Below are positions 2,423-61,727 of a DNA stretch of 64,000 nucleotides, piece after piece. A program made the translations under genes and the position numbers. Source of the DNA: a phage; the sequence record PX436236.1. The stretch is one strand, 5' to 3'. The notes beneath the pieces are model-generated. The model made no database searches. It was given only the letters and a program-made list of their open reading frames with translations, and had not been told where the DNA came from. The first letter of the stretch is position 1; every line of letters starts with the position of its first letter.

Positions 2423-2732
2423 TTTTAACTACCTCATGTTGAACATATTCTCTGGTAGAACCTAGTTCAGCCAGAATTCTTCTCATAGAACCCATTGTAC
2501 TTTTGTGCTCTCTATGGCGATACATTATCTCTAAAACCTTTTCCTGGACAACAGGAGAGAGCGCTTGGTTATCTTTAATCTTTAAGGCAATAGATTTTAC
2601 AGCCTTAAGGTATTCAAGTCCCTTACCGCTTGTAGTCACTACTCCTTCATCTTTACAGTTACGAATAGCCGTTTCCATAAAGGATAAAGCCAGGTTATCC
2701 GTGTTCACTATACTGTTATCTTGCATAATCAT
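2409..2732 (-). CDS. hypothetical protein, 107 aa
   Basis: ORF; start moved to MIMQDN, which is preceded by GAGGTGAGAAT. Confidence 0.45.
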   Translation of the reverse strand: MIMQDNSIVNTDNLALSFMETAIRNCKDEGVVTTSGKGLEYLKAVKSIALKIKDNQALSPVVQEKVLEIMYRHREHKSTMGSMRRILAELGSTREYVQHEVVKNDKL

Positions 2733-2774
2733 ATTCTCACCTCTAGATAATCCTATCATAACCACAGGTCTTTG

Positions 2775-2802
2775 TAAACCCCGAAAAGGGCCCGAAGGCC
2801 CT
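2775..2802 (-). terminator. Intrinsic terminator hairpin (GGGCC-UUCG-GGCCC) with downstream U-run, minus strand
   Basis: Perfect stem with UUCG tetraloop followed by TTTTCGGGGTTT on the minus strand. Confidence 0.5.
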
Positions 2803-2809
2803 TATTAGT

Positions 2810-3010
2810 TTAGTTACTTGAATCGACCTTATAGACTTGTCCGCGGGTTTGGTAAACTTCGCCGTCCCATGTCTCGACTGTAATAGTCACGTATTCTGCA
2901 AACTGAGGTCTAGTATCAGTCCAGATATAACCGTATTCACCGGTGACGAGCGTAACCCAGTACTTTCTCATAAAGTCTCCTTTTGTATGGCACCAATTAG
3001 TACCATACAT
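2810..3010 (-). CDS. hypothetical protein, 66 aa
   Basis: ORF between topoisomerase gene and terminator. Confidence 0.4.
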   Translation of the reverse strand: MYGTNWCHTKGDFMRKYWVTLVTGEYGYIWTDTRPQFAEYVTITVETWDGEVYQTRGQVYKVDSSN

Positions 3011-3015
3011 ATTTA

Positions 3016-4833
3016 TTACGACATCCAGGCCTTACGGAGTTGAGGGTCATTACCAAGGAGCATTTCGAACTGTTCTTTCCAATCTTCAGGTAATTGAACC
3101 ACATCAAATTTAGGGTCTTGAATCATTCGACGGTATTCAGCTTTCTCAAGAGAACCTAGTCCTTTGATATAACGAATAGAATGTTTTGGTAGAGAATCCT
3201 TAGCTTTGGTATAACTAGGCACATCATAGAACCATTCCTGTTCTTTACCAATCTGGGCAATAATTACCGGAGTTTTACAGAAACGTACTCGGCCTTGTTC
3301 GAACAATTCAGGCCATTGACTAAAGAAGGCTAGCAATGATGGATAAATCGAACCAGTACCATCCACATCGGCATCAGTCATAATAGCAATATTACGATAG
3401 TTAGTTTTCTCTGCAGGTTCACCAATAACCAATCCAGTGATTGCACAGATATCAAATAGTTCCTTGTTCTTCATGATATCTGTTGCTGTCATTCCCCAGG
3501 TATTCATAACCTTACCACGCAATGGGTAACCACCTTGAAGGTCTTTATTACGAACTTCAATGAAAGGACCCATAGCGGAATCCCCTTCGGTTAGGAACAG
3601 GGTTGTATCAGCATCTTTGCCGTATAGGTTAGCTTTAATATGCTTATGGACCTTGGCTTTAGAAGCTTTCTTAGCGGCTTTAGTTTCGGCAGCCTTTTCA
3701 GCTGCTAATTTACGTGCTAAAGCAGCTTCAACGATAGGCATAATCAACCCATCAACTTTAAGAATGGCTTGAGCAATTTTCTTAGCATCAATTTGGATAT
3801 GATTGCGAATCTCACCAAAAGGAGAGGTCAAACGTTCTTTAGTCTGTGAATCAAAACGCATGTTGCTCATATCACGAATGAACATCACCATCGTAAGGCA
3901 TTCTTTAACACGAGCTTTAGTTACTTCAATTCCACGGTATTTCTTTTTAATGCCTGGCAGAAGGTGTTCACAAATATCATCGAATACACATTCAACGTGG
4001 TGGCCACCATTCTTGGTGTGGATATTGTTTACATAAGTCAGTTGACGGAATCCATCCGGAGAAGGAGTGAACGCCATCGAAACATTATCGGTTTCTTGGA
4101 TTACAAAGTCTTCACCAAATTGCTTAGCATACTTTTTAAAGTTGCCATCTACTTTTTTACCATTAAAAGTAAATTGAATATCAGGATAAACTACGGCCAG
4201 AGTTTGCAATCGGTCTAATGTAATATCCAGATAAATTTGTGACAGGCTATTTTCTTCGAAATGATTAAAGTCTGGGGTGAATATAACCGAAGTACCCTTA
4301 CCTTTAGATTTCTTAGTAGACCAACCTTTGTTTTCCATTCCGTTTGAACAGTTAACAGTAATCTCATTCTCACCATCAGAGGTGATGCCTGTGAACAAAA
4401 CAGAGAAGATATTAGTTAAACTACTACCGACACCATTCATGCCGCCTGTCTTACGCTCAGCGTCATCTCCAAAGTTACCACCTGCCTTTGGAATAGTCCA
4501 TGCAGCTACAGGACCTGGAATCTGTTCACCATTTTGGTCGGTGACCATTGCTTGTGGAATACCACGACCATTATCAGAAACTGAAACCTGGTTATTCTTA
4601 ATTTGAACATCAATTTTATTTGCGAATTTAAAATTGGTACGAATAGCTTCATCGACAGAGTTATCAATGATTTCATCAATTAATTTAACCAGTCCAGGAA
4701 CATAGTTTACCTGTGTAAAATTACCAAACAGGAATCGACCGTGAGCTTCATTAGCACTTGAGCCAATATACATCCCACTACGTTTTTTGATATGTTCAAT
4801 GTCGGACAGTACTTTAATTTCATTCTTAATCAT
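3016..4833 (-). CDS. 39: DNA topoisomerase II large (ATPase) subunit, gp39 with gene-60 portion fused, 605 aa
   Basis: N-terminus MIKNEIKVLSDIEHIKKRSGMYIGS and GyrB-like motifs; 605 aa is the size of a single uninterrupted 39+60 ORF. Confidence 0.9.
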   Translation of the reverse strand: MIKNEIKVLSDIEHIKKRSGMYIGSSANEAHGRFLFGNFTQVNYVPGLVKLIDEIIDNSVDEAIRTNFKFANKIDVQIKNNQVSVSDNGRGIPQAMVTDQNGEQIPGPVAAWTIPKAGGNFGDDAERKTGGMNGVGSSLTNIFSVLFTGITSDGENEITVNCSNGMENKGWSTKKSKGKGTSVIFTPDFNHFEENSLSQIYLDITLDRLQTLAVVYPDIQFTFNGKKVDGNFKKYAKQFGEDFVIQETDNVSMAFTPSPDGFRQLTYVNNIHTKNGGHHVECVFDDICEHLLPGIKKKYRGIEVTKARVKECLTMVMFIRDMSNMRFDSQTKERLTSPFGEIRNHIQIDAKKIAQAILKVDGLIMPIVEAALARKLAAEKAAETKAAKKASKAKVHKHIKANLYGKDADTTLFLTEGDSAMGPFIEVRNKDLQGGYPLRGKVMNTWGMTATDIMKNKELFDICAITGLVIGEPAEKTNYRNIAIMTDADVDGTGSIYPSLLAFFSQWPELFEQGRVRFCKTPVIIAQIGKEQEWFYDVPSYTKAKDSLPKHSIRYIKGLGSLEKAEYRRMIQDPKFDVVQLPEDWKEQFEMLLGNDPQLRKAWMS

Positions 4834-6032: not shown

Positions 6033-6599
6033 TTATGCAAAATGAATATCAGCGTACTCAACAATAAAACTTTCAGGAACTACTTTAAAGGTGCCAAGGA
6101 ACACGATGTTATACAGCTTAACACCTTCTTCAACCCATTGGTCTGTGATGTAACCGGACATACTAGTGGTTTCATAAGTCGGACCATACTTGCAATTGTA
6201 TTCAAACGGTTTAGGTGAAACGAAAAAGACACCTTTACCTAATTTCCATTTGAAATCAACACCAACATGAGATTGGTCAATAGTTTCAACGTCTTGAGCT
6301 ACTACGCCACGGATATCATTGCTTTCACATACATACCCATCATGGGATTCAACTTCTTCAACTACAGGAGCGATGTATCCGGTAAATTCAGTCGATTCCA
6401 AGAATTTAGCACGCACATAAGCGAATTGAGTTTCAGTTTGACCATTTTTAGGAATGATACGCACTTTTACTTCAGAATTTTCTACACTGACACCTTCTTT
6501 AAGTTGGATACTAACAACTTCAACTAAACAGCCTGCAGCTTTTGAACGAGACTTTTTGGATACACGAACAATACCGCCGATATCGGAAATAGTAATCAT
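6033..6599 (-). CDS. hypothetical protein, 188 aa (paralog of 6673-7221)
   Basis: C-terminus TDQWVEEGVKLYNIVFLGTFKVVPES matches the neighbour. Confidence 0.55.
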   Translation of the reverse strand: MITISDIGGIVRVSKKSRSKAAGCLVEVVSIQLKEGVSVENSEVKVRIIPKNGQTETQFAYVRAKFLESTEFTGYIAPVVEEVESHDGYVCESNDIRGVVAQDVETIDQSHVGVDFKWKLGKGVFFVSPKPFEYNCKYGPTYETTSMSGYITDQWVEEGVKLYNIVFLGTFKVVPESFIVEYADIHFA

Positions 6600-14678: not shown

Positions 14679-15519
14679 TTTCGAACCTCTTTACCATGTT
14701 TATATAATTTTCGTCTGGATAACCTAAACTAACTGCTAACTTTCTAAAATTCACATATTTTGGTTTGTTATTAGCAATCCATAAATTCCTAAGCTCAGTT
14801 TCATAATTCCATTTGAGTTGATTGCCTCTAGCAGTTTTGCTCAAAGTTTTTCCTTTATCTTTTAGAGCTTTTTCCGAAGACTGTTTTAATTTTTGGAGAT
14901 TTAAAACTTCCTCAACAGATAAATTATTTTCTTCTGCATAGCGCGCACAAAAATCTTTTACTGTAGCTATTAGACAGTTTTTGTGGGTACCTAAAACTTC
15001 CGGATTATTTTCTTCAACCAAAACTCCCCAGTATCTTCGATAGCGAGGCATATCCCGCGAAATCCAGTCATTATACCAGAAATCAAAATTAGAATACATA
15101 AAGGATTTTCTTTTACGGAGAATGTCTTGCTCTATCCACTCCCCGCGTTTATCGGCCCATAACTTAATAGTAAGGTCTTTCTCTAAATCAGAAAGCTTCT
15201 TAAACTGGGCACTATTTGTTAGTGTCATTCTCTGGAATGCATTAAGCAAACCCACCACCTGAGTTGAGCACAAAAGATAATGAACATATATGTGTTGGTA
15301 TATAGGAAGATAGACCCTATTCCAAGGAGAGATTTTAAAATCGCTGTATTCTGGAAATGCACACTTCGGAAGTATATGATGAGCTTCCGTTTTAGATTTG
15401 GTATGGACGTTTAGTTTATACTTATCTATAATTTTTAAGTAATCATCTAAAAGTTCCCATTGCGGGAACTTTTCTTTAAGAACAGATTTGAAATTAATAT
15501 CCATTGTCCTGGCGTTCAA
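14671..15519 (-). CDS. HNH homing endonuclease, 282 aa
   Basis: HNH motif EAHHILPK...N...H; C-terminal LGYP..NY segment shared with the HNH gene at 50778-51542; sits in the soc-56 interval. Confidence 0.6.
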   Translation of the reverse strand: MNARTMDINFKSVLKEKFPQWELLDDYLKIIDKYKLNVHTKSKTEAHHILPKCAFPEYSDFKISPWNRVYLPIYQHIYVHYLLCSTQVVGLLNAFQRMTLTNSAQFKKLSDLEKDLTIKLWADKRGEWIEQDILRKRKSFMYSNFDFWYNDWISRDMPRYRRYWGVLVEENNPEVLGTHKNCLIATVKDFCARYAEENNLSVEEVLNLQKLKQSSEKALKDKGKTLSKTARGNQLKWNYETELRNLWIANNKPKYVNFRKLAVSLGYPDENYINMVKRFENE

Positions 15520-16012
15520 AGTTGTGTTTATTTTTCAAATAATAAAGTTTAAACATTTCTTCGGCCGTCATATTCAGGCCAATAGCCATATTGAATACGA
15601 AGTGCATGATGTCAATGAGTTCGAATTTAATTTCGAGTTGGTCTTCAGGAGACATTTCTGAAATAGGTTTGGCCTGTGCTTCTGGATAACGAGCTTTCCA
15701 TTTTTTCCAGACAGCAGATGCATCTTTCTCACCTTTAGACATTTCACCAAGTGAAGTCAGAAGTTCACGGAATTCATCGTCAATACAATCTTTCTGTTCA
15801 CGCATCCAAGCAACAACATCACCGGCTGTCGCTAATTTGTCCGGATGGTAACAATATTCACGGTCATTAGCCAAACGAACCTGTAAAGATTTCTGCATAT
15901 CAAGCATAACTTGCAGAGGGTCTTTATCTTCATGAATCAGAGCATTAAAATAAGCTTCCTCAGCTTTATCAACACCATCAATCAGGTTTGCGCATTCGTT
16001 AAAGTATGCCAT
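15494..16012 (-). CDS. 56: dCTP pyrophosphatase gp56 (MazG-like), 172 aa
   Basis: N-terminus MAYFNECANLIDG resembles T4 gp56; size and position agree. Confidence 0.8.
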   Translation of the reverse strand: MAYFNECANLIDGVDKAEEAYFNALIHEDKDPLQVMLDMQKSLQVRLANDREYCYHPDKLATAGDVVAWMREQKDCIDDEFRELLTSLGEMSKGEKDASAVWKKWKARYPEAQAKPISEMSPEDQLEIKFELIDIMHFVFNMAIGLNMTAEEMFKLYYLKNKHNFERQDNGY

Positions 16013-22517: not shown

Positions 22518-23411
22518 TTAAAGGACCACGTCCTCATAACTTGGCATTTCGTGCTCAGAATGGATATGGGCACCGAAATAAATGAATTCAGCTAGACCAG
22601 GATGGAATACTAAACCGGGATTCTCATGATAAATGATATGAGGTCTTGATTTCAGAATCTGATAATATTCAACCTTACTCGGTTTGAATTTAATAATCTC
22701 TACATCAGGACGATAGTCTTCACGCTTAAATGAATCATTCGGATCGGTGATATAAAGGCGAGAACCTTCAGCCGCAGCTTGGTCTACAACTCTTTCGAAT
22801 TGATAACATTTATCAGAGATACGGAATGGATGGAAAATACCATCAATTTTAATAGGCGCTAGACCTTCAGAGTAACGCTCAATTACTGCAGGATTAATTA
22901 CCTTTTGGTCTACAAAAATCTTATCAGAGGATGCACCTCGTGACACCAGGACGTCTTTCTGACATTGATTCAAGACCGTAGTATAAATCGAACGTTCAAC
23001 TGAACCCACGTCGGTATCAATAAACTCATCGATGTAATAACGAGGAACTTCAGGGTCCATTGTAATGTTAAAGTTGAATTGTACGGTATGAGCACCATCA
23101 TAACCTGTGATATCGGTTACCAATCCTGAGCAGTCATAGTATTCGATTAACGAATCAACAACGAACTCATTTTCAGACCAAAAATGTTTACGAGTTTCAT
23201 AAGCATTTTCTTTATACCAAAGAGGTACAAAATTCAGTTCAGGAAATAATTCAATGCATTCTTTGATATCGCTCGAATTTCTAGGATAAGCCAGATAATC
23301 ACCTGGGCAAGCACGGTTTAAATGGAGTTGAAAATTGCCGTCCTTAAGGACGGCATATTCACCTGTTTCGTAACTACGCATACTGAAAATAGGAACGATA
23401 AACAAACTCAT
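22518..23411 (-). CDS. protein of unknown function, 297 aa, occupying the T4 beta-glucosyltransferase slot
   Basis: No resemblance to remembered T4 beta-gt; its start overlaps the gene 42 stop by 4 nt. Confidence 0.6.
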   Translation of the reverse strand: MSLFIVPIFSMRSYETGEYAVLKDGNFQLHLNRACPGDYLAYPRNSSDIKECIELFPELNFVPLWYKENAYETRKHFWSENEFVVDSLIEYYDCSGLVTDITGYDGAHTVQFNFNITMDPEVPRYYIDEFIDTDVGSVERSIYTTVLNQCQKDVLVSRGASSDKIFVDQKVINPAVIERYSEGLAPIKIDGIFHPFRISDKCYQFERVVDQAAAEGSRLYITDPNDSFKREDYRPDVEIIKFKPSKVEYYQILKSRPHIIYHENPGLVFHPGLAEFIYFGAHIHSEHEMPSYEDVVL

Positions 23412-24106
23412 TTCAGGAATCCTCGAACGTAGTCAAAATCACGTTCAAATACGTGTGCACTAACCATAGTATGGGAATACGTACCCAGACCAACACCACA
23501 CTGTTCAGCAATAAAGGCCATCAGTTTACCCTGCAGATAGAAATCCAGCTGCATAACAATAGCACAGTTCTGTGAACGCATATGGGTATGTGCATAAAGA
23601 CGTCCATCACGAATATAATATGTCACCGAATCGGTACATGGGTATTCTAAGGATTCGTCAGAATCAAGGAGGGCTTGGTCTTGTTCTTGGAGAATTTGGA
23701 ACACAACTCGTCTCGAGTTAGGCTTTTCTTTAAGCTCTTTAAGTAAGGCTGGGAGTTGGGCCACAATTCGAGGTCCATAGAAAGTGTTGAAGTTTGCAGG
23801 CAATACGTCACTTTTCGGCTTATCAATGAACTTAGCAACATTAGGATATTCCTTAAATGCTTCGGCAGCATCAGTACCACCGGAAATCATAAACTTCCAA
23901 AAGGATTCGGCATAATCATAGTTGATACGATTAATACGAGGGTCGGTGAATTTATAGGTGCTTGCATCCAGTACTTCTACCGAAGCAGAACCAATTTCAT
24001 AACAACGGCCGATACGAGAATCAACTGCAAACTGTGGAGCTTCCAGGATTTCTTCGTTCATTTGCTTAAACGCGTTTTCAAAACTAACAGCGGTAATGTG
24101 TTTCAT
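23408..24106 (-). CDS. 42: dCMP hydroxymethylase gp42 (thymidylate synthase fold), 232 aa
   Basis: PNSRRVVFQ...YPCTDSVTYYIRDG...MRSQN...QLDFY aligns to T4 gp42 and has Asp at the cytosine-specificity position. Confidence 0.8.
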   Translation of the reverse strand: MKHITAVSFENAFKQMNEEILEAPQFAVDSRIGRCYEIGSASVEVLDASTYKFTDPRINRINYDYAESFWKFMISGGTDAAEAFKEYPNVAKFIDKPKSDVLPANFNTFYGPRIVAQLPALLKELKEKPNSRRVVFQILQEQDQALLDSDESLEYPCTDSVTYYIRDGRLYAHTHMRSQNCAIVMQLDFYLQGKLMAFIAEQCGVGLGTYSHTMVSAHVFERDFDYVRGFLK

Positions 24107-24639
24107 TTATTCACCTTATTTTCAATATATTCATTCAGACGTTTTAATTCTACCATATCGACGTTAAGCAAGTTATTATGGCCGTCGTGATTTAAGATTT
24201 TAAACACGTTTTCAAAACATGTTTCGTATTGGCGGATAGTTAGGTTGAACTCATCTTTGGTTAATTTAATAAGGTCATCTTCAAAGTCTTTATCCAGTGG
24301 ATTACGGGTTAAAATAATCTCAATGATATTGAATTCTTTTTTGAAATCAATCCAATCTTCTAGTTCTACATAAGGGTCCATTTCACCACGAAGGAATCCA
24401 GAGTAAACAATATTACTAGGATACCCACGGTCTAAGATGTAGACAAAATTAGGGTCTAAAAACTTATACAACGTCTCGACTAAAGCCTTGTCATTATCAG
24501 TCCCTAATGAAATGCATTTGCCATTAATCTTTTTAGGGAAATCAATAAGACGATATTTCTTATCAGATAAAAGTGATTCAATTAAAGTAGACTTCCCGGA
24601 ATTATCCGGGCCGTCGATAACAATGATTTTTGGTTTCAC
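24103..24639 (-). CDS. P-loop kinase, 178 aa
   Basis: Walker A IIVIDGPDNSGKST at the N-terminus; stop overlaps the gene 42 start by 4 nt. Confidence 0.65.
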   Translation of the reverse strand: MKPKIIVIDGPDNSGKSTLIESLLSDKKYRLIDFPKKINGKCISLGTDNDKALVETLYKFLDPNFVYILDRGYPSNIVYSGFLRGEMDPYVELEDWIDFKKEFNIIEIILTRNPLDKDFEDDLIKLTKDEFNLTIRQYETCFENVFKILNHDGHNNLLNVDMVELKRLNEYIENKVNK

Positions 24640-25034
24640 GGATGATATGCCTTATAGGTTTCAAGAGTTCCCTCACGAACCATTTCTTTAAAGTGGTCAG
24701 GACGGATTGCTCGGTCATCGATGATAAAAGTATAACTCGGCTTATGTGTAAGCAGATTGTGATATTTCAATCCAATCTTTTCAAGGTTCTTAACTAATGC
24801 AGGAACTACTTCAACCAAGATTCGACCTGGGCCGCATGAAGTCATACCACGGGCAGTGAACAAGGTAATCTCGTACCCTTCATCATAAAGCTTATTAATC
24901 ATGGACACCATTTCGGTGTCCGGTTTAAAGTTTTCGTAATCACGGTCATGGTTCCAAATCGTGATTGTGTTATCGATGTCAAAACATAAATGAGGCTTAT
25001 TTTCTACTCGATGTGACATTAAATTTTCTTCCAT
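24636..25034 (-). CDS. HAD-superfamily phosphatase, 132 aa
   Basis: Motifs FDIDNTIT, TLFTAR and IIDDR, similar in pattern to the T4 polynucleotide kinase phosphatase domain. Confidence 0.6.
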   Translation of the reverse strand: MEENLMSHRVENKPHLCFDIDNTITIWNHDRDYENFKPDTEMVSMINKLYDEGYEITLFTARGMTSCGPGRILVEVVPALVKNLEKIGLKYHNLLTHKPSYTFIIDDRAIRPDHFKEMVREGTLETYKAYHP

Positions 25035-26692
25035 TGTTTGTGGAGTTCAGTAGAACCTGTAGGTTTATATTTTACACCAGTTTCTTGGTCAAGCAAAACC
25101 CACTTATCAGGACAACGAGTGATAATTTGAGCCGTGATAGGGTCGCGAACTTCATCAACGAATTCACCTGTGATAAGCTTACGCTTACGAGGATGTCGCT
25201 TCAGCAGCACACTCAGTTGGTACAAACCGTTGTAATAAGCACCCAGAGCTTTCAGAGGGTTATTTTTAAAGTAACCTGCCAATGCCATCCAGATAACAGC
25301 AATCCAGAGCTTGTGCTTAAATGTACACATTGGAATATCATCTAAAGGCATAACCTTTTCAATATCAACGAATACACGAGTTCCGTTACGAGTTAAGCCA
25401 CCCCATAGAGGGTCAGAGTTAAATTTGTCATAACCATCGATAGAATAAAGCACCTTAGCTTCATCATAAATCGCAGGGCCTTTAGAACTATTACCAAAAT
25501 AACCACGTGGGTCGATGATTTTAATATTACCTTCGTCCGACAACATAATATTACTGTAGTGCGGGTCGCCATGAATAAGTTGGTACGGTTCTTTATGTTC
25601 AGACAGAATTTCTAAGGCGTGACGAAGAAGTTTTTCTGGGTCGCCTACCTTGAAGTCGTTAACATGGGTAATACCCTGTGGAGCAAAGCCTTCAATCAAT
25701 CCGGCAATAGAAGCATTACGAATAAGGACCTTGTCCAATACTTCTTTCTTAACATCAGAATACCATTGCTCATCGGACGGATTATCGATAGTTCCACCGA
25801 ACGAACGTAATGCACTAATAACCTTATAAACCATTAGGACTTTAGTTTCTTTAGACATAAACCGGTAGGCATCTGCCATGGTTCGACCAAAGATACGTTC
25901 CATTTTAATGAATTCGCCTGGAGCAAAGTCTACAATGCTAGGAACGAATTCGGAATCAATAGAATTATACCAATTGATTTCTTTAGATTGGATTTCTTTA
26001 CCCAATTCGTTAGTTGGTACTTTAATAGCTAGATTCTCGGTGAACTCTAATTTATTAAATTCACGGTTAATTTCAGAATCTTCATGCGCCTTAGCCAGTT
26101 TCAGTTTGTCACCAACATCAACTACAAAGTCTAACTTACGTTCAGTCAAATGGACCATTGAATCCAGGTTGTCAGCAAGGTCTTCACCATAATTAGAACG
26201 GTCGAAACCTGTCCAATTAGCCACCTGATACAAGCCAACTACGCCACCACCGGTACCAATTTCACGCAAGTACGGTTCTTCAAATGTAAAACGACAGTCA
26301 GTCCCATAGGTATAACAGTAGTCGTTATCCCACTCAACTTTATGACCTTCAGGAATAATATCACACCAGTTAAACAAGACATTGTGCCCAATGATATCTT
26401 CGGCAATGCAATCGATAGCATGAGCCGAACCATTGGCAACATCAACGTTACGAATAGTGAATTTAGGCTTATCACTATTAATCATGTTAATGGATTTAAT
26501 ATAGCCTTTAACGAGGTCGTTAAATTTGCTGTGAATAACCAGAATAATTTCATCTGATTGATTACTATACAAATCATACAAATGTTTTAATACAGTATGT
26601 TGTTTGTAGTTAACCAGTACCTTCGGGATTTCGTTGGTAATTGGATACAACCGTGAGCCAAGACCCGCGCCTAAAATAACAACCTTTTTCAT
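25019..26692 (-). CDS. bifunctional nucleotidyltransferase (N-terminal) / APH-choline-kinase-like kinase (C-terminal), 557 aa
   Basis: N-terminal VVILGAGLGSRLYPIT...KVLV signature; C-terminal HGDPHYSNIM...IIDPRG; start set at MKKVV, preceded by GAGGAA. Confidence 0.65.
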   Translation of the reverse strand: MKKVVILGAGLGSRLYPITNEIPKVLVNYKQHTVLKHLYDLYSNQSDEIILVIHSKFNDLVKGYIKSINMINSDKPKFTIRNVDVANGSAHAIDCIAEDIIGHNVLFNWCDIIPEGHKVEWDNDYCYTYGTDCRFTFEEPYLREIGTGGGVVGLYQVANWTGFDRSNYGEDLADNLDSMVHLTERKLDFVVDVGDKLKLAKAHEDSEINREFNKLEFTENLAIKVPTNELGKEIQSKEINWYNSIDSEFVPSIVDFAPGEFIKMERIFGRTMADAYRFMSKETKVLMVYKVISALRSFGGTIDNPSDEQWYSDVKKEVLDKVLIRNASIAGLIEGFAPQGITHVNDFKVGDPEKLLRHALEILSEHKEPYQLIHGDPHYSNIMLSDEGNIKIIDPRGYFGNSSKGPAIYDEAKVLYSIDGYDKFNSDPLWGGLTRNGTRVFVDIEKVMPLDDIPMCTFKHKLWIAVIWMALAGYFKNNPLKALGAYYNGLYQLSVLLKRHPRKRKLITGEFVDEVRDPITAQIITRCPDKWVLLDQETGVKYKPTGSTELHKQWKKI

Positions 26693-35736: not shown

Positions 35737-35974
35737 CCTTGATGCATGATTCAGCCATATGAATTAATGTTTCTGGAGTATCATCTACCATTACATTAAA
35801 GCTAAATTCCACAGCCCAATCAGTAGCAACATAAACTTTAATAAGCTCGTTGGTATCGCGAGTGCTCACGGCTTCAAACCAGAACTTAATGATATTCGTT
35901 TGGTTATCGTCATCAATAACTGTGCAGTCATGCTCCAGTTCAAGTCCTGATTTTTTGAATTCATCTAAAGTCAT
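35711..35974 (-). CDS. hypothetical protein, 87 aa
   Basis: ORF. Confidence 0.45.
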   Translation of the reverse strand: MTLDEFKKSGLELEHDCTVIDDDNQTNIIKFWFEAVSTRDTNELIKVYVATDWAVEFSFNVMVDDTPETLIHMAESCIKDAYNDENV

Positions 35975-36993
35975 CGTGTAACCTCATTATAAAGTTGTGC
36001 GGCCATAGTCTTAAGGGCTTTAACATCGTCTTCAGTGTGGCCATCAGGGAGGGCATCGATATAATCATACATCATATCCAAGAGGGACTTAACTTCATCT
36101 TCCTCTTCAGAATCATCGATATCAACACTGTTATCTACCTTAGACACAATACGCAAAGAGTGGACAACCTTTTCAAGCTCTGATTCGAACTTGGTAAGGC
36201 CGTCATCGATTTTATCGACTATAACACGAACTGCGATATTTGTAAAATCTTTGTAATCGATAGTCGCGTTTGGATAATGAATCTTACGGTGCCAACAGGT
36301 TTCATTGATGATGAAATCCATTTTATGGGTTTCTGTATCGAAAATCCAGAAGCCACGAGGGTCGTTCTCATCACCTGCAGTCAGGGTCCATGGCGTACCA
36401 ATATACTTGACGTTTGCTGCATCAGAAATGGTGTGGAAGTGACCAGACCATACTTGCTTATACTTCTTAAGGAAATCAGGTTCTAAACCATGTGATTTCA
36501 TTCCTTTATAGAAATAGAAACCATTTAATTCCCAGTGGCCAATACAGAAATCGGCAGTAGTATTTTTGATATGGTCCATGATATCGGTCGTGTTTTCTTC
36601 ACACATCCATGGAATCAAATCAATTTCTGTACCATCAAAATTAACCGTAGTAGGTTTCTCAATAACCTTGATATGGTCGTATTTACCCAGAACTTCAGAA
36701 GCAGCGTTCGGAGTCAATGTGTTTTTGTAGTGCATATCATGGTTACCAACGACCGTATACATGGTAATGCCGTTGGCTTTAAGCAAATCGGAGATTTCGC
36801 GAGCGAATTCCATACACTTATGGGTAATTGCTTTACGAACGTCAAAGATATCACCGTATTGAATCCATACAGTAATGCCATTTGCTTTAGAATAATTAAT
36901 AGCGTCTTGGATACCTTGACGTTGGATATTTTGTACCCACACATCATCGGCCTTCACTCCAAGGTGCCAGTCACCTGTGTTTAATATTTTCAT
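35971..36993 (-). CDS. 47: recombination endonuclease subunit gp47 (SbcD/Mre11-like), 340 aa
   Basis: N-terminal phosphoesterase motif MKILNTGDWHLG; start set at MKIL. Confidence 0.88.
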   Translation of the reverse strand: MKILNTGDWHLGVKADDVWVQNIQRQGIQDAINYSKANGITVWIQYGDIFDVRKAITHKCMEFAREISDLLKANGITMYTVVGNHDMHYKNTLTPNAASEVLGKYDHIKVIEKPTTVNFDGTEIDLIPWMCEENTTDIMDHIKNTTADFCIGHWELNGFYFYKGMKSHGLEPDFLKKYKQVWSGHFHTISDAANVKYIGTPWTLTAGDENDPRGFWIFDTETHKMDFIINETCWHRKIHYPNATIDYKDFTNIAVRVIVDKIDDGLTKFESELEKVVHSLRIVSKVDNSVDIDDSEEEDEVKSLLDMMYDYIDALPDGHTEDDVKALKTMAAQLYNEVTR

Positions 36994-37133
36994 AAGCCAA
37001 GCGCCGTTATTGCAATGCAAAATAAAATTATTGAAATGAACCCGTCAGGAGTGGAAAAGAATCCTATCCAACAAGCTCGTGTGAATGTGTAGAATGCCAT
37101 GAATAACACGACATATCCTAAAAGTAGTTCCAT
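36990..37133 (-). CDS. possible small membrane protein, 47 aa
   Basis: Own translation MELLLGYVVLFMAFYTFTRACWIGFFSTPDGFISIILFCIAITALGL; GGAGAA RBS; stop overlaps the gp47 start. Confidence 0.4.
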   Translation of the reverse strand: MELLLGYVVLFMAFYTFTRACWIGFFSTPDGFISIILFCIAITALGL

Positions 37134-37153
37134 ATGTTCTCCTCAGTTGGTTC

Positions 37154-37178
37154 ATTTTATCATCCAAATATAAAGCAA
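37154..37178 (-). promoter_or_regulatory. Candidate middle promoter
   Basis: TTGCTTTA (MotA-box-like), 11 nt, TAAAAT. Confidence 0.35.
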
Positions 37179-37198
37179 AAAAGGAGCCTAAGCTCCTT
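37175..37198 (-). terminator. Terminator hairpin (AAGGAGC-UUAG-GCUCCUU) with U6
   Basis: Perfect stem followed by TTTTTTGC on the minus strand. Confidence 0.5.
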
Positions 37199-37419
37199 TA
37201 CCAACTAATACACCGTACAGAGGTTCGTGATTAGACCTGAACTTGATAGGCTTATAGGTAATAGTACCTTCATTTTCTGCTTTAATACGAGCGGCTTCAA
37301 ATTTAAGTATCATCTCATTTTTGTCAGATTTAATCTTATCAAAATCCATCGAATTCGTCATTCATACAACCTCTTAAACTTTTTCGTATTCGTCTTTCAT
37401 TAGCCGCCTGTCCACGTTA

Positions 37420-57298: not shown

Positions 57299-57508
57299 TT
57301 ATTCTTGGAATGGGGTAAGTTTTCCAGCAGCTGAACAAATTTCTACCAGTACAGGGTAAAACTCTTTCACTTGTTCAAGGCGTTGGGCTGCATACTGTAC
57401 TTCACCTTCTTCGAGACAAGCCATTTGGTCGTCAAGCAAGTATTTGTGGTAGCCAGTACAGGCTTCACCGATGATACGCTGGAAATCTTGTAAACTTTCA
57501 ATTTTCAT
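57299..57508 (-). CDS. hypothetical protein, 69 aa
   Basis: Start set at MKIESLQD, preceded by GAGGAAA. Confidence 0.45.
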   Translation of the reverse strand: MKIESLQDFQRIIGEACTGYHKYLLDDQMACLEEGEVQYAAQRLEQVKEFYPVLVEICSAAGKLTPFQE

Positions 57509-57786
57509 CAGTATTTTTCCTCGGGTTGGAAAACGGAACGACACGCCCACATACTAGCTTCTTTAAGACGGTCAATTGCATTACGAATCTGGGTAATGCG
57601 TTCATGAGCCTGGTCTAGTTCTTGTTCAGAAACCTCTTCGGTATCTAAGTTCATATAATAGGTAACATGTTCTTCTTCTAGAGCTTTAAACATCAGCCCT
57701 AACCGAATTTCGGCATCTTTGATAGCGTTTACTTTACCGATTTTATCGTCGGTATGCGGCTTATAACCCTTGATATCTTCAATCAT
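57508..57786 (-). CDS. hypothetical protein, 92 aa
   Basis: ORF. Confidence 0.45.
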   Translation of the reverse strand: MIEDIKGYKPHTDDKIGKVNAIKDAEIRLGLMFKALEEEHVTYYMNLDTEEVSEQELDQAHERITQIRNAIDRLKEASMWACRSVFQPEEKY

Positions 57787-58974: not shown

Positions 58975-59274
58975 TTAGAAAGAACCAGAACCTCTAATTG
59001 TGTTCTGGCGACCTTTATTTTCTAATTCGGAGTGGTCGATTTCATATGCTTGTGCTACGCCAAAGGCCTTTTTAACTTTAGCTAAAGAACCTTTAGATGT
59101 AACAATATTAAAAGTATTACCTTTGGTAAAATCAACAAAATCGACTTGTACGCCCTGTTTACCGAGGCTTGCTACAATAGCATCAACATATTCTTGGTCT
59201 AAATTGCCTTGAACTCCAATTTGAAATGCTTTAGGAGCTTTGGCTTCTGTGATAAATTCTTGATAAGTTTTCAT
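58975..59274 (-). CDS. internal-protein-like packaged protein with capsid-targeting N-terminus, 99 aa
   Basis: N-terminus MKTYQEFITEA matches the T4 internal-protein capsid-targeting sequence. Confidence 0.55.
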   Translation of the reverse strand: MKTYQEFITEAKAPKAFQIGVQGNLDQEYVDAIVASLGKQGVQVDFVDFTKGNTFNIVTSKGSLAKVKKAFGVAQAYEIDHSELENKGRQNTIRGSGSF

Positions 59275-59287
59275 TGTTATTCCTTAA

Positions 59288-59329
59288 GTTGATAGAAGTA
59301 TTCTATCACGGATTTAATTAAGCGTAAAT
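59288..59329 (-). promoter_or_regulatory. Early-promoter cassette variant (ATTTAC, 18 nt, TAGAAT, CTTCTATCAAC)
   Basis: Upstream of the 58975-59274 ORF. Confidence 0.45.
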
Positions 59330-59734
59330 AGCCTTGCCATAATGTTTGTACCAGGTAGGACGCTGTGCAATTTTTTCATCCAAACGGGTCTGAGATATAG
59401 CAATAGAAGCTTCGTGTGGAGTATAGTCACCACGGAATTCCTGAGGAATGTCACTAATGTCCTGGACAGTAGTATCCTTGATATTAAAACCACGTTTTAA
59501 ACATTCGGCTATAAGCTCAATTTGTCGCTTACGTAAAAATTCAAGCTTATCGTAAAAGAATGTAACATGGCCTGTGCCAAGGATAAAAGTAGGACTGATT
59601 TTGAAATCACGGACATGTTTACCATTAGCAACATGCTTACGAACTGCACCGAAAACACGTGGTAATTCACGATATTCAGCCATTAAGTGTTGGTCAGCCA
59701 ATTCAGATACTAAGGTAAGGTTGATACGAGTCAT
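59318..59734 (-). CDS. denV: endonuclease V (pyrimidine dimer glycosylase) DenV, 138 aa
   Basis: Near-identical to T4 DenV from [28 protein letters not shown]; start set at MTRINL. Confidence 0.92.
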
Positions 59735-59763
59735 TTTAGTGTTCTCCATGTTTGTATGAGAAC

Positions 59764-59792
59764 ACTATATCACAACTATCGTAAAAATAAAC
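59764..59792 (-). promoter_or_regulatory. Early promoter upstream of denV (GTTTAT, 17 nt, TGATATAGT)
   Basis: Sigma-70-like elements with extended -10. Confidence 0.4.
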
Positions 59793-59794
59793 CG

Positions 59795-60097
59795 TTATTT
59801 ACCTTTAATTGCTTTAGCTGCTTCGGTAGCCGCTTGCTGAAGGTCATCCATAGACATACCGAACTTAGAAGCAAAGTTATCAATTTTCTTTTCGACAGAA
59901 TTCAAAGGCTTGGCCTGTTTACCTTCATTAGCGCCTGGGAGAGCGAGAATACGCTCTTTGTCAATATAAAGGCTTACAAGTTTCTTACGGTCTTTATCGG
60001 GCAAATCATGAAATGAATGGGCCTTTTTATTTACGGCGGCTTCTAATTTACCCGCACTTACTCGCGCTTCGGTGATAAATTCTTGATAGGTTTTCAT
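59795..60097 (-). CDS. internal-protein-like packaged protein, 100 aa
   Basis: N-terminus MKTYQEFITEA. Confidence 0.55.
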   Translation of the reverse strand: MKTYQEFITEARVSAGKLEAAVNKKAHSFHDLPDKDRKKLVSLYIDKERILALPGANEGKQAKPLNSVEKKIDNFASKFGMSMDDLQQAATEAAKAIKGK

Positions 60098-60138
60098 ATG
60101 TTTCCTTTAAATGTAAATAGGTCCGAGTATTCGCTTTA

Positions 60139-60735
60139 TTAATTACCACGGGCTGCATTAGCAACGGCGTAAGCGTACTGAATATTAGCGTCTTTAAACG
60201 TACCTTTAGAGGTATCTAGTTCTGCCTTAAAGCCGCCTTTAACCATAACATCAGCAAATTCTTTACGGAAAGTCATTGCATCAAGACCTTTCCATGCGGA
60301 TTTATGCTTGGCAAATTCAAGACCGGCGAAGTTAACTGCTTTAGCCAATTTATTATCAATAGTCCATTTACCTGCTTTAGGTACAAACACCGGGCCTTTC
60401 TGTTTAGAGAACAGTTTTAAATTCCAGCGACGAAGGTCACCGTCAGCTTTAACAAAAGCTGCGTCCAAGTTACTAGCAACAACATCTTGGATATGGGCAA
60501 ATTTAAGTCCATCAGCTTCAATATTTAGGTCGTTACGCCAGCGAAGTCCTTCCCAGGCGAAAGCTTTAAAGTCGGAAGCTTTTGTAGCCAAGTACCGTTC
60601 AATAGGAGCTGTTTTAGCGTCAAAACCGTTTCCTGGGTTGTCAACGCCGTTTCCTTTGTAAGTCCACTCATCTTTATTAATGCCTTGGACCTTTCCTACA
60701 GAAGCTTCGGCGATAAATTCTTTATACGTTTTCAT
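60139..60735 (-). CDS. internal-protein-like packaged protein, 198 aa
   Basis: N-terminus MKTYKEFIAEA. Confidence 0.55.
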   Translation of the reverse strand: MKTYKEFIAEASVGKVQGINKDEWTYKGNGVDNPGNGFDAKTAPIERYLATKASDFKAFAWEGLRWRNDLNIEADGLKFAHIQDVVASNLDAAFVKADGDLRRWNLKLFSKQKGPVFVPKAGKWTIDNKLAKAVNFAGLEFAKHKSAWKGLDAMTFRKEFADVMVKGGFKAELDTSKGTFKDANIQYAYAVANAARGN

Positions 60736-60786
60736 ACGGGTTCCTTAAAGGAAAATATTTTAATTGGTCTGTTCAAGTAACTGTAG

Positions 60787-60818
60787 ATATACTATCACAA
60801 TTCTAGGAGATGTAAACT
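60787..60818 (-). promoter_or_regulatory. Early promoter (GTTTACATCTCC, TGATAGTAT)
   Basis: Partial member of the cassette family, upstream of the 198-aa internal-protein gene. Confidence 0.45.
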
Positions 60819-61216
60819 TATTTATAGGTCTTCATCCAATTCTTGAACAAAGCCGCGACGTCTTTCTCTTTAACGTTCAGTTTAATGTCCAACATTTTAC
60901 CACCCGCTGCTCTGGTTTGGCGAATCTTAGCAGTACCGGTTTCGCCATTCCACTCAACATAATACTGTCCAGTGTTCATTGCAATACCATCACCGTAGTC
61001 TTCATTTTTAGAAGTGGTGAATGCTAGCTTCATAGTCTTAGATACATGAGCCTGCATGCCTGTCTGAAGGGCATTACGAACGCGAATAACCTGAGGAGTG
61101 GCCTGGGTCAAGTTCTCATTCAGTTCTTCAGTGAACTCTTCAGATTCAAACATCGCCAAAAGTTCTTTAGATGCAGGAATTACATTCTCTGCGATAAATT
61201 CATTATAAGTTTTCAT
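60818..61216 (-). CDS. internal-protein-like packaged protein, 132 aa
   Basis: N-terminus [11 protein letters not shown]. Confidence 0.55.
60821..60828 (-). promoter_or_regulatory. Late promoter TATAAATA
   Basis: Exact octamer immediately upstream of the early promoter, giving the internal-protein gene both early and late signals. Confidence 0.4.
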
Positions 61217-61697
61217 ATGCTTTCCAAGTACCTGTTTTAAATGTTGAAATCACGCGCTTAGCACGATTAGGAGTTTGTTTATACCAACGGGATTGAGCCA
61301 GGTTAACTGCCGCATCGTTCCAACGTTTCTGTTGGAGCATACGTAAAGAGTTAGTGAACCCTGCTACGCCTGCTTCACCCATTTGGAAGACCATGTTAAT
61401 TAAAGCACAACGACGAACTTCGTCCAGTACATCATAAACAGGTTTCAATTTAGGATTACGCAGAATAGCTCTACGAGCATTTTCAACCGATCGGTTAAAG
61501 AGTTGTTCAGCTTCAGCCATAGTAATACGACCATTACAAACTCGACCTATAAGCTTATCAAGTTCAGCACGAGCAACATCTTTAGAAGGGTTCTTAGTAA
61601 TCAATTGGCCGATACCAATAGTCCAATAACCTTCAGTGTCTTTATAAAGATTTAAATCAAGACCTTCGTCTTGACGTAACATATCAAAAATATCCAT
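61203..61697 (-). CDS. e: lysozyme (endolysin, gene e), 164 aa
   Basis: Near-identical to T4 lysozyme ([16 protein letters not shown] ... [30 protein letters not shown]). Confidence 0.95.
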
Positions 61698-61727
61698 AAT
61701 ACCTCCTGAGTATAGGAGGTATTTATA
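61698..61727 (-). promoter_or_regulatory. Late promoter TATAAATA plus SD-sequestering hairpin upstream of gene e
   Basis: Minus strand: TATAAATA-CCTCCTATACTCAGGAGG-TATT-ATG; 7-bp stem pairs ACCTCCT with AGGAGGT. Confidence 0.6.

Follow-up and report, generated by a model that had tools for sequence, protein, structure and literature searches.

A tag-sharing gene array in the e-denV locus

This report concerns a 64,000-nucleotide (nt) stretch of phage DNA (sequence record PX436236.1; hereafter the window, to which all positions refer unless stated otherwise) and, within it, four open reading frames (ORFs) whose products all open with the same ten-residue tag, MKTY(Q/K/N)EFI(T/A)E. They encode proteins of 99 amino acids (aa; 58975..59274), 100 aa (59795..60097), 198 aa (60139..60735) and 132 aa (60818..61216), all on the minus strand, with coordinates and lengths exactly as given in a preliminary description of this DNA. 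Read along the minus strand, nudE and e come first, followed by the genes for the proteins of 132, 198 and 100 aa and then by denV, the 99-aa gene and vs.8; this is collinear with the T4 order e, ipIII, ipII, denV, vs.8. All four tag genes lie between e and vs.8, on either side of denV, in one of the two internal-protein loci of the T-even phages; the other is that of ipI, next to 57B. By its gene order the region is the known e-denV internal-protein locus of T-even phages, and the earlier assignment to the position of T4 ipII and ipIII is borne out. The array had also been placed just upstream of gene e, a description that has to be reversed, since transcription from the minus strand puts the genes downstream of e.

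The upstream boundary of the array is e itself (lysozyme; 61203..61697, minus strand), recognized by its Pfam Phage_lysozyme domain and by the annotation of relatives. The denV gene (endonuclease V; 59318..59734, minus strand; Pfam Pyr_excise, E 1e-14) sits inside the array and is not an internal protein; it shows 91% nucleotide identity to T4 denV, and its start was set at MTRINL in keeping with T4, JS98 and other relatives, the mechanical ORF beginning five codons earlier (59735-59749). The region has 92-99.6% nucleotide identity to Dhakavirus genomes, the JS98-like T-even phages of E. coli, with UGJNEcP3 as the best full-length match (97.4%); on these identities the source phage is a Dhakavirus, a JS98-type T-even coliphage. 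Three of the four tag genes already carry an internal head or virion protein annotation in close relatives. The 132-aa product, here called Ip132, is the tag-bearing protein that we put forward as a candidate addition to this class.

The tag and its DNA module

Residues 1-10 of T4 IPIII suffice to load a protein into the prohead core (PMC9026906; PMC3012670). Mutagenesis of IPIII assigns Tyr4 and Phe7 to targeting and Ile8 and Glu10 to processing by the prohead protease gp21, which cleaves after the Glu of L/I-x-E (PMC9026906). Tyr4, Phe7, Ile8 and Glu10 are present in all four window proteins, which upholds the identification of their N-terminus with the T4 capsid-targeting sequence; the 99-aa and 100-aa proteins start MKTYQEFITEA and the 198-aa protein MKTYKEFIAEA, and the gp21 motif occupies residues 8-10 (ITE or IAE) in each of the four, with a second L/I-x-E site in Ip132 alone. 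From amino-acid composition, MKTY.EFI.E would be expected by chance about 1.3e-6 times per window. Scanned in all six frames, the window has MKTY at five places only, the four ORF starts and the C-terminus of Ip132, and a looser tag pattern matches the four starts only.

Beyond the tag the proteins diverge completely, as had been noted, with similarity limited to the first 10-17 residues. BLASTP alignments between the four are confined to residues 1 to ~10-24, and when the 132-aa and 99-aa families are compared profile to profile the N-terminal 44 columns alone align, an alignment driven by the tag. The term paralogs used in the preliminary description does not fit these genes, whose bodies have no detectable homology and whose shared part is a module of ribosome-binding site and tag only. 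In the DNA the common part forms four direct repeats of 54 nt, each of which takes in the ribosome-binding site and codons 1-10. The copies lie on the minus strand at 59243..59296 (99-aa gene; direct-repeat family D1 and alignment A1), 60066..60119 (100-aa gene), 60704..60757 (198-aa gene) and 61185..61238 (Ip132, within the end of e).

The mature proteins predicted from gp21 cleavage are small and basic: 89 aa, 9.5 kDa and pI 9.0 for the 99-aa protein, 90 aa, 9.8 kDa and pI 9.7 for the 100-aa protein, and 188 aa, 20.7 kDa and pI 9.5 for the 198-aa protein, with Ip132 only weakly basic at 13.7 kDa and pI 8.1. The same-genus phage JS98 encodes gp21, gp22, gp67 and gp68; those genes fall outside the 64-kb window. 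From the tag we infer that the 99-aa and 132-aa proteins would also be packaged into the head.

The basic character of all four mature proteins would also suit mainly structural components, that is, basic head-fillers serving core assembly or the neutralization of DNA charge, among which only IpII and IpIII would have specific targets. The T4 internal proteins, ~300 copies of each of which are retained in the head and ejected with the DNA (PMC9026906; PMC3012670), bind DNA at low salt (PMC9026906), their lysines touch DNA phosphates (PMC3012670), and mutants in IPIII assemble heads more slowly, form polyheads and have a burst of ~40% of normal (PMC9026906). However, the bodies attached to the tag are unrelated, dispensable and freely swapped, and some relatives have one or two only, which fits accessory genes in an arms race; moreover, for each of Ip1, Ip2 and Ip3 a specific restriction enzyme is known as the target. 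We regard a mainly structural role as unlikely and favor the delivery of anti-restriction proteins, to which we return below.

IpII and IpIII orthologues and an Ip7-family protein

The 100-aa protein aligns with T4 IpII over its full length at 94% amino-acid identity (E 5e-67; 94.7% nucleotide identity) and matches phrog_7857, 'internal virion protein' (E 2e-54); the 198-aa protein aligns with T4 IpIII over its full length at 87% amino-acid identity (E 5e-129) and matches phrog_5341, 'internal virion protein' (E 7e-115). They carry the same tag as their T4 counterparts and occupy the same place between e and denV. Judged by this likeness, the 100-aa protein is the IpII orthologue and the 198-aa protein the IpIII orthologue, the latter differing from T4 IpIII by a 6-residue insertion (198 versus 193 aa). 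The 99-aa and 132-aa proteins align with T4 IpII and IpIII over the tag alone, and none of the four has a significant relative of solved structure in PDB sequence searches.

With a full-length match (E 7e-43), the 99-aa protein falls in phrog_2667, 'internal head protein'. In tblastn comparisons, the ip7-annotated genes of phages VR20 and VR25 share 97% identity with it, the annotated ip7 of CC31 52% and an 'internal head protein' of T2 50%. Ip4-Ip10 are given as polymorphic T-even internal proteins in the accounts of Repoila et al. (1994) found in PMC12373910 and PMC3012670. The CC31 ip7 gene adjoins 57B in the ipI locus, whereas the window copy lies downstream of denV. The AlphaFold model of the Ip7-like protein, of moderate confidence (pLDDT 75), is a beta-alpha-beta-beta-alpha-beta sandwich. 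The 99-aa protein and the 132-aa family profile also gave PDB matches to flagellin or a 'flagellin hook IN motif'; these are weak (E 0.002-0.02), probably reflect the composition of beta regions rich in Ala, Thr, Gly and Asn, and were set aside.

Ip132, a family annotated as hypothetical

Ip132 falls in phrog_15461 ('unknown function'). The family is a small one. In a search of 5.8 billion sequences, the 17 clusters recovered all belong to it, and when 1.84 billion representatives were searched exhaustively with the family profile there were 7 hits, those beyond the family being weak matches to repeat proteins; sequence searches of Pfam, NCBIfam and the PDB returned nothing significant. The tag opens every family member examined. 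Its residues 1-4, 6-8 and 10 are invariant in the family alignment, whose members are 56-94% identical to Ip132, and relatives with ~40% identity, in phages Cronus and 4S, also start with it; the form in Erwinia phage Cronus is a short one of 99 aa, tag included. A 194-aa form is extended by a domain at its N-terminus, and its tag is the variant MKSFDQYIMES. The 132-aa family has every sequence trait expected of an internal protein, though none of the records examined annotates it in this way.

The second gp21-type site of Ip132, L-N-E at residues 32-34, is conserved in the family; the acidic stretch in front of it is disordered in the AlphaFold model and missing in short family members. A second cleavage by gp21 at this site is a reasonable guess. 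The model as a whole (pLDDT 58) consists of a helix, a four-stranded sheet and a C-terminal helix, with residues 1-31 disordered. We also considered whether the MKTYK at the C-terminus of Ip132 might be the remnant of another tag; MKTY is rare, with ~0.28 hits expected by chance in the whole window, but the idea is a weak one, as relatives read WMKSYK, WMKTHK, WMKVHK or WLKK at this place, and the residues are more likely part of an ordinary C-terminal helix.

The Ip132 gene starts within the 3' end of e, the two sharing 14 nt (61203-61216), so that the bases GCA TAT GAA AAC TTA TAA encode the C-terminus of lysozyme, AYENL*, and, in the other frame, the tag codons ATG AAA ACT TAT. T4 e ends AYKNL, with similar DNA and no overlapping gene, and JS98 e ends AAYR.

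This embedded start, the acidic disordered segment after the tag, the designation 'hypothetical' in all 40 records listed among 50 matching phage records, the PHROG label and a literature search that found no proteomic evidence would suit a different account, in which the 132-aa ORF, and possibly the 99-aa ORF too, is not packaged at all, the tag being a by-product of recombination and the protein cytoplasmic or non-functional. Against this account, the residues for targeting and cleavage have been kept across the family although the bodies have diverged to ~40-57% identity, and they persist in the 99-aa and 194-aa forms; the ORF is intact in 50 of 50 matching records, and it always stands in an internal-protein array beside known internal-protein genes. 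We consider it improbable that Ip132 stays outside the head, and treat it below as a putative packaged protein.

Expression signals

An early-type, sigma-70-like promoter site (GTTTACA, a 16-nt spacer and TG-TAGTAT; 60789..60816, minus strand) begins right after the stop codon of Ip132 and is conserved upstream of ipIII in T4 and JS98. Upstream of the Ip7-like gene, a second promoter-like site (TTTACG, a 17-nt spacer and TAGAAT preceded by TG; 59300..59328, minus strand) is recognized by its consensus match only.

The 198-aa gene had been credited with both an early and a late promoter. Both sites are present, the late-promoter motif TATAAATA lying at 60819..60826 on the minus strand, where it coincides with the last Ip132 codons TAT AAA TAA; the late motif, however, is confined to some lineages and is not conserved in the closest relatives. 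The site reads TACAAATA in UGJNEcP3, AnYang and JS98, and in UGJNEcP3 and AnYang, which share the gene order e-132-ipIII-ipII-denV with the window, the Tyr codon is TAC, not TAT. Five occurrences of TATAAATA were found in the window against 7 expected, so there is no enrichment. A motif that is neither conserved nor commoner than chance is not to be read as a late-promoter adaptation for ipIII, and we rejected it as such. The TATAAATA motif upstream of e (61720..61727, minus strand) is found at the same place in T4, JS98, UGJNEcP3, QL01, WG01, IME341 and AnYang. Since this motif is conserved and the intervals between the internal-protein genes yielded no terminator-like site, read-through from the e promoter is a plausible route of late expression, and is the most economical reading of these signals.

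Cassette shuffling and exchange between genera

Among the relatives, the tag-bearing bodies occur in twelve distinct arrangements (numbers in brackets give the length in aa of other tag-bearing proteins). The window and UGJNEcP3 have e-132-ipIII-ipII-denV-Ip7; JS98 has e-ipIII-132-denV-Ip7, QL01 e-132-ipIII-denV-Ip7, WG01 e-132-ipIII-denV-(119)-(85), AnYang e-132-ipIII-ipII-denV-(119)-Ip7 and IME341 e-ipII-denV-Ip7. Further afield, the order is e-132-ipII-denV-ipIII-Ip7 in Marfa, e-(99-aa form of 132)-denV in Cronus, e-(93)-denV-(86)-132-ipIII in HMD-9, e-(93)-(86)-132 in F27, e-132-ipIII-ipII-denV fragment in ESCO47 and e-ipIII-ipII-denV in T4. A small census of 44 loci, obtained mostly by scanning viral contigs for the tag DNA, comprises ~21 tag-bearing families with unrelated bodies.

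One of these arrangements retains the trace of its origin. The e-ipII junction of IME341 (locus positions 1520-1660) equals the e-Ip132 junction of the window (61139-61279) up to GAATTTATC and continues as the ipII body (compare window 60020-60160), giving a chimeric tag that reads MKTYN of the 132-aa type and then FITEARV of ipII. Compared in this way, the IME341 junction is the footprint of a crossover within tag codons 6-8 that deleted the 132-aa body together with ipIII.

The DNA of ipII is 94.7-94.9% identical among the window phage, T4 and Klebsiella phage Marfa (Marfavirus), while e is 72-75% and denV 68-91% identical among them. Likewise, the Ip132 gene is 95.5% identical in DNA to that of HMD-9 (Tequatrovirus) and 92.7% to that of F27 (Mosigvirus), but 86% to that of the same-genus phage JS98. 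The ipII and Ip132 genes are therefore closer across genera than their flanks or the same-genus copy, so that cassettes move between genera; the identities indicate recent exchange.

Several further tag-bearing genes were seen in these relatives. WG01 and AnYang carry a 119-aa protein and WG01 an 85-aa protein as well (WG01 locus 465-1090; AnYang locus 785-1144). HMD-9 and F27 carry proteins of 93 aa and 86 aa, the latter with the variant tag MKMYQEFIAE (HMD-9 locus 1417-1698 and 2177-2437). The genes of these proteins share the locus with those described above, and most are annotated as hypothetical. In JS98, two more tag-bearing ORFs lie outside the range that the window covers: an unannotated 97-aa ORF (MKTYQEFIKES...; 6261-6554, minus strand, in 66000-76000) lies between trna.4 and 57B, at the ipI locus, and orf135, annotated as hypothetical, encodes 205 aa beginning MKTYNEFLNES... 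(2732-3349, minus strand, in 66000-76000).

DNA modification and anti-defence function

T4 Ip1, Ip2 and Ip3 each block one variant of the GmrSD enzymes, with no cross-protection (PMC12373910, Silas et al. 2025): Ip2 inhibits the ECOR21 GmrSD, of the BrxU type, and Ip3 the two-gene ECOR17 GmrSD (PMC12373910). The mature T4 IPI* inhibits the GmrS/GmrD enzyme of CT596 (PMC3012670). IPI*, which gp21 processes and which enters the cell together with the DNA, is small and tag-bearing like the window proteins; it differs in that its sequence resembles none of the four bodies and in being encoded in the other internal-protein locus, outside the window, and it is absent among the listed fold-search matches of the Ip7-like and Ip132 models. 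The reading of the array as a diversified anti-defence payload finds experimental support, by orthology, for two of its four members, IpII and IpIII; the Ip7-like protein stands as an internal protein through its family, and an anti-defence role for it and for the 132-aa protein is what we infer by extension.

The window phage differs from T4 in the modification that its DNA is predicted to carry. No alpha- or beta-glucosyltransferase gene (alpha-gt, beta-gt) was found at the T4 positions in the window, with no alpha-gt between gene 47 and a-gt.2 (35974-37361), and homologues of RB69 ORF047c, 048c, 045c, 051c and 052c, an RB69-type cluster for arabinosylation and 5-hydroxy-dCMP, lie at ~22524-26692 in place of T4 beta-gt and gene 42. 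Dhakaviruses are listed among the phages with a cytosine-arabinosylation cluster (PMC13326640). The DNA of the window phage probably contains arabinosylated cytosine, not glucosylated hydroxymethylcytosine. BrxU cleaves DNA with arabinosylated cytosine (PMC13390438), so a T4-type Ip2 would still be useful to such a phage. The notion that the 132-aa family is confined to phages with arabinosylated DNA, from which a target specific to this modification would follow, was refuted by HMD-9, which has alpha-gt, beta-gt and a T4-type gene-42 homologue together with the 95.5% identical gene.

Model for the internal-protein array

Our comparative data, coupled with the published work on T4, suggest a model that we consider likely to be correct: in the e-denV locus of Dhakavirus, four unrelated bodies, each fused to the ~54-nt module of ribosome-binding site and tag, would be packaged, processed and injected as anti-restriction proteins. 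Sequence features, orthology, cassette shuffling and the crossover footprint come from the present comparison; tag function, gp21 cleavage, injection and the targets of Ip2 and Ip3 are taken from the literature. We propose that early transcripts start at promoters just past each upstream stop codon while late ones read through from the e late promoter, which is conserved, and that the tag attaches the precursors to the scaffolding core of the prohead, where gp21 would cleave after Glu10 at I-x-E. The mature basic proteins would then remain in the head with the DNA and be co-injected with it. The IpII and IpIII orthologues may bind and block distinct GmrSD Type IV enzymes, of the BrxU/ECOR21 type and the two-gene ECOR17 type, which would otherwise cut DNA with sugar-modified, here probably arabinosylated, cytosine; for the Ip7-like and 132-aa proteins the most likely role is a similar one, against other defence proteins. 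The array itself would evolve by recombination in the shared tag and promoter modules and by cassette exchange between genera. Anti-CRISPR and anti-defence islands are similar in holding small, unrelated inhibitor genes of fast turnover at a fixed hotspot, an analogy drawn in PMC12373910; the window array differs in being unified by a protein delivery tag, with inhibitors pre-loaded in the virion that would act before phage gene expression.

Several observations weigh against this model. No perfect late-promoter motif lies directly upstream of the 99-aa, ipII or Ip132 genes, and their late expression therefore relies on the proposed read-through. At 94% and 87% identity, the specificity of the IpII and IpIII orthologues could differ from that of T4 Ip2 and Ip3. 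Of the four proteins Ip132 is the least basic, and its tag is followed by an acidic disordered stretch; the Ip132 model has no fold match in the PDB (best Foldseek E 0.37, from a model too uncertain at pLDDT 58), while that of the Ip7-like protein gives generic ACT/ferredoxin-like matches only (TM-scores 0.4-0.5), which hold no functional clue. The literature yielded no virion proteomics or genetics for Dhakavirus or for phages with the 132-aa family; virion mass spectrometry exists for the Klebsiella ValerieMcCarty phages, which are Jiaodavirus and absent among the listed records of the family. Finally, none of ip4-ip10, ip7 included, reproducibly inhibited any GmrSD variant among those tested (PMC12373910 supplement); the ip7 interactions seen in the 2025 screen were not reproduced.

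The last of these results bears on the nature of the targets. The Ip7-like and 132-aa proteins may be injected and yet act outside the GmrSD family, on other nucleases or glycosylases that attack hypermodified DNA, or in an Alt-like takeover of the host. Other defences against hypermodified T-even DNA do exist, DNA glycosylases and END nucleases being examples. All three internal proteins of known target, however, act on GmrSD-family enzymes, and Silas et al. argue that both internal-protein loci are directed at variants of this family (PMC12373910); five active GmrSD groups are still without a known inhibitor (PMC12373910), and both proteins are small and have no enzyme-like domains. Targets outside GmrSD are a minority possibility to which we give some weight, less than to the anti-restriction model.

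For the 132-aa family we can offer a more specific, and tentative, proposal, which we hold to be somewhat doubtful. The family may be an unrecognized class of injected internal protein, cut both after Glu10 and at the LNE of residues 32-34 and shedding the acidic linker between them, that neutralizes a host defence for which no matching internal protein is known, be it one of the five orphan GmrSD groups or a system outside GmrSD; its tag module would be a portable site of exchange between phages of differing DNA modification. If so, the near-identical Ip132 copies in Dhakavirus, Mosigvirus and Tequatrovirus would show the tag module to be an exchange site.

Internal proteins enter the cell with the DNA and can in this way disarm restriction enzymes before phage genes are expressed, and they thus contribute to the host range of T4-like phages, candidates for therapy among them. 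The principle of diverse bodies behind one capsid-targeting sequence, with a role against modification-dependent restriction, has been established since the 1990s, with a mechanism for Ip2 and Ip3 added in 2025, and the window adds little to it. What is new is modest: first, a 132-aa 'hypothetical' family that could readily be screened against Type IV restriction systems of the orphan kind. Second, T4-type Ip2 and Ip3 cassettes are found nearly unchanged in a phage whose DNA is probably arabinosylated, which fits inhibitors that recognize the enzyme and not the DNA modification. Third, the relatives document the loss of cassettes by crossover within the tag and their exchange across genera.

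Other features of the window

A scan with Rfam found no RNA families in 56-64 kb. Two genes stand apart from their surroundings in their similarity to relatives. The vs.4 homologue (57508-57786) is only ~77-78% identical in DNA to JS98 and UGJNEcP3, against 92-100% for its neighbours, and forms a small mosaic patch. The homologue of gp56 (dCTPase; 15497-16012) has 75.7% protein identity to JS98 gp56, where the other genes compared have 94-100%, a difference that looks like a mosaic replacement of the allele.

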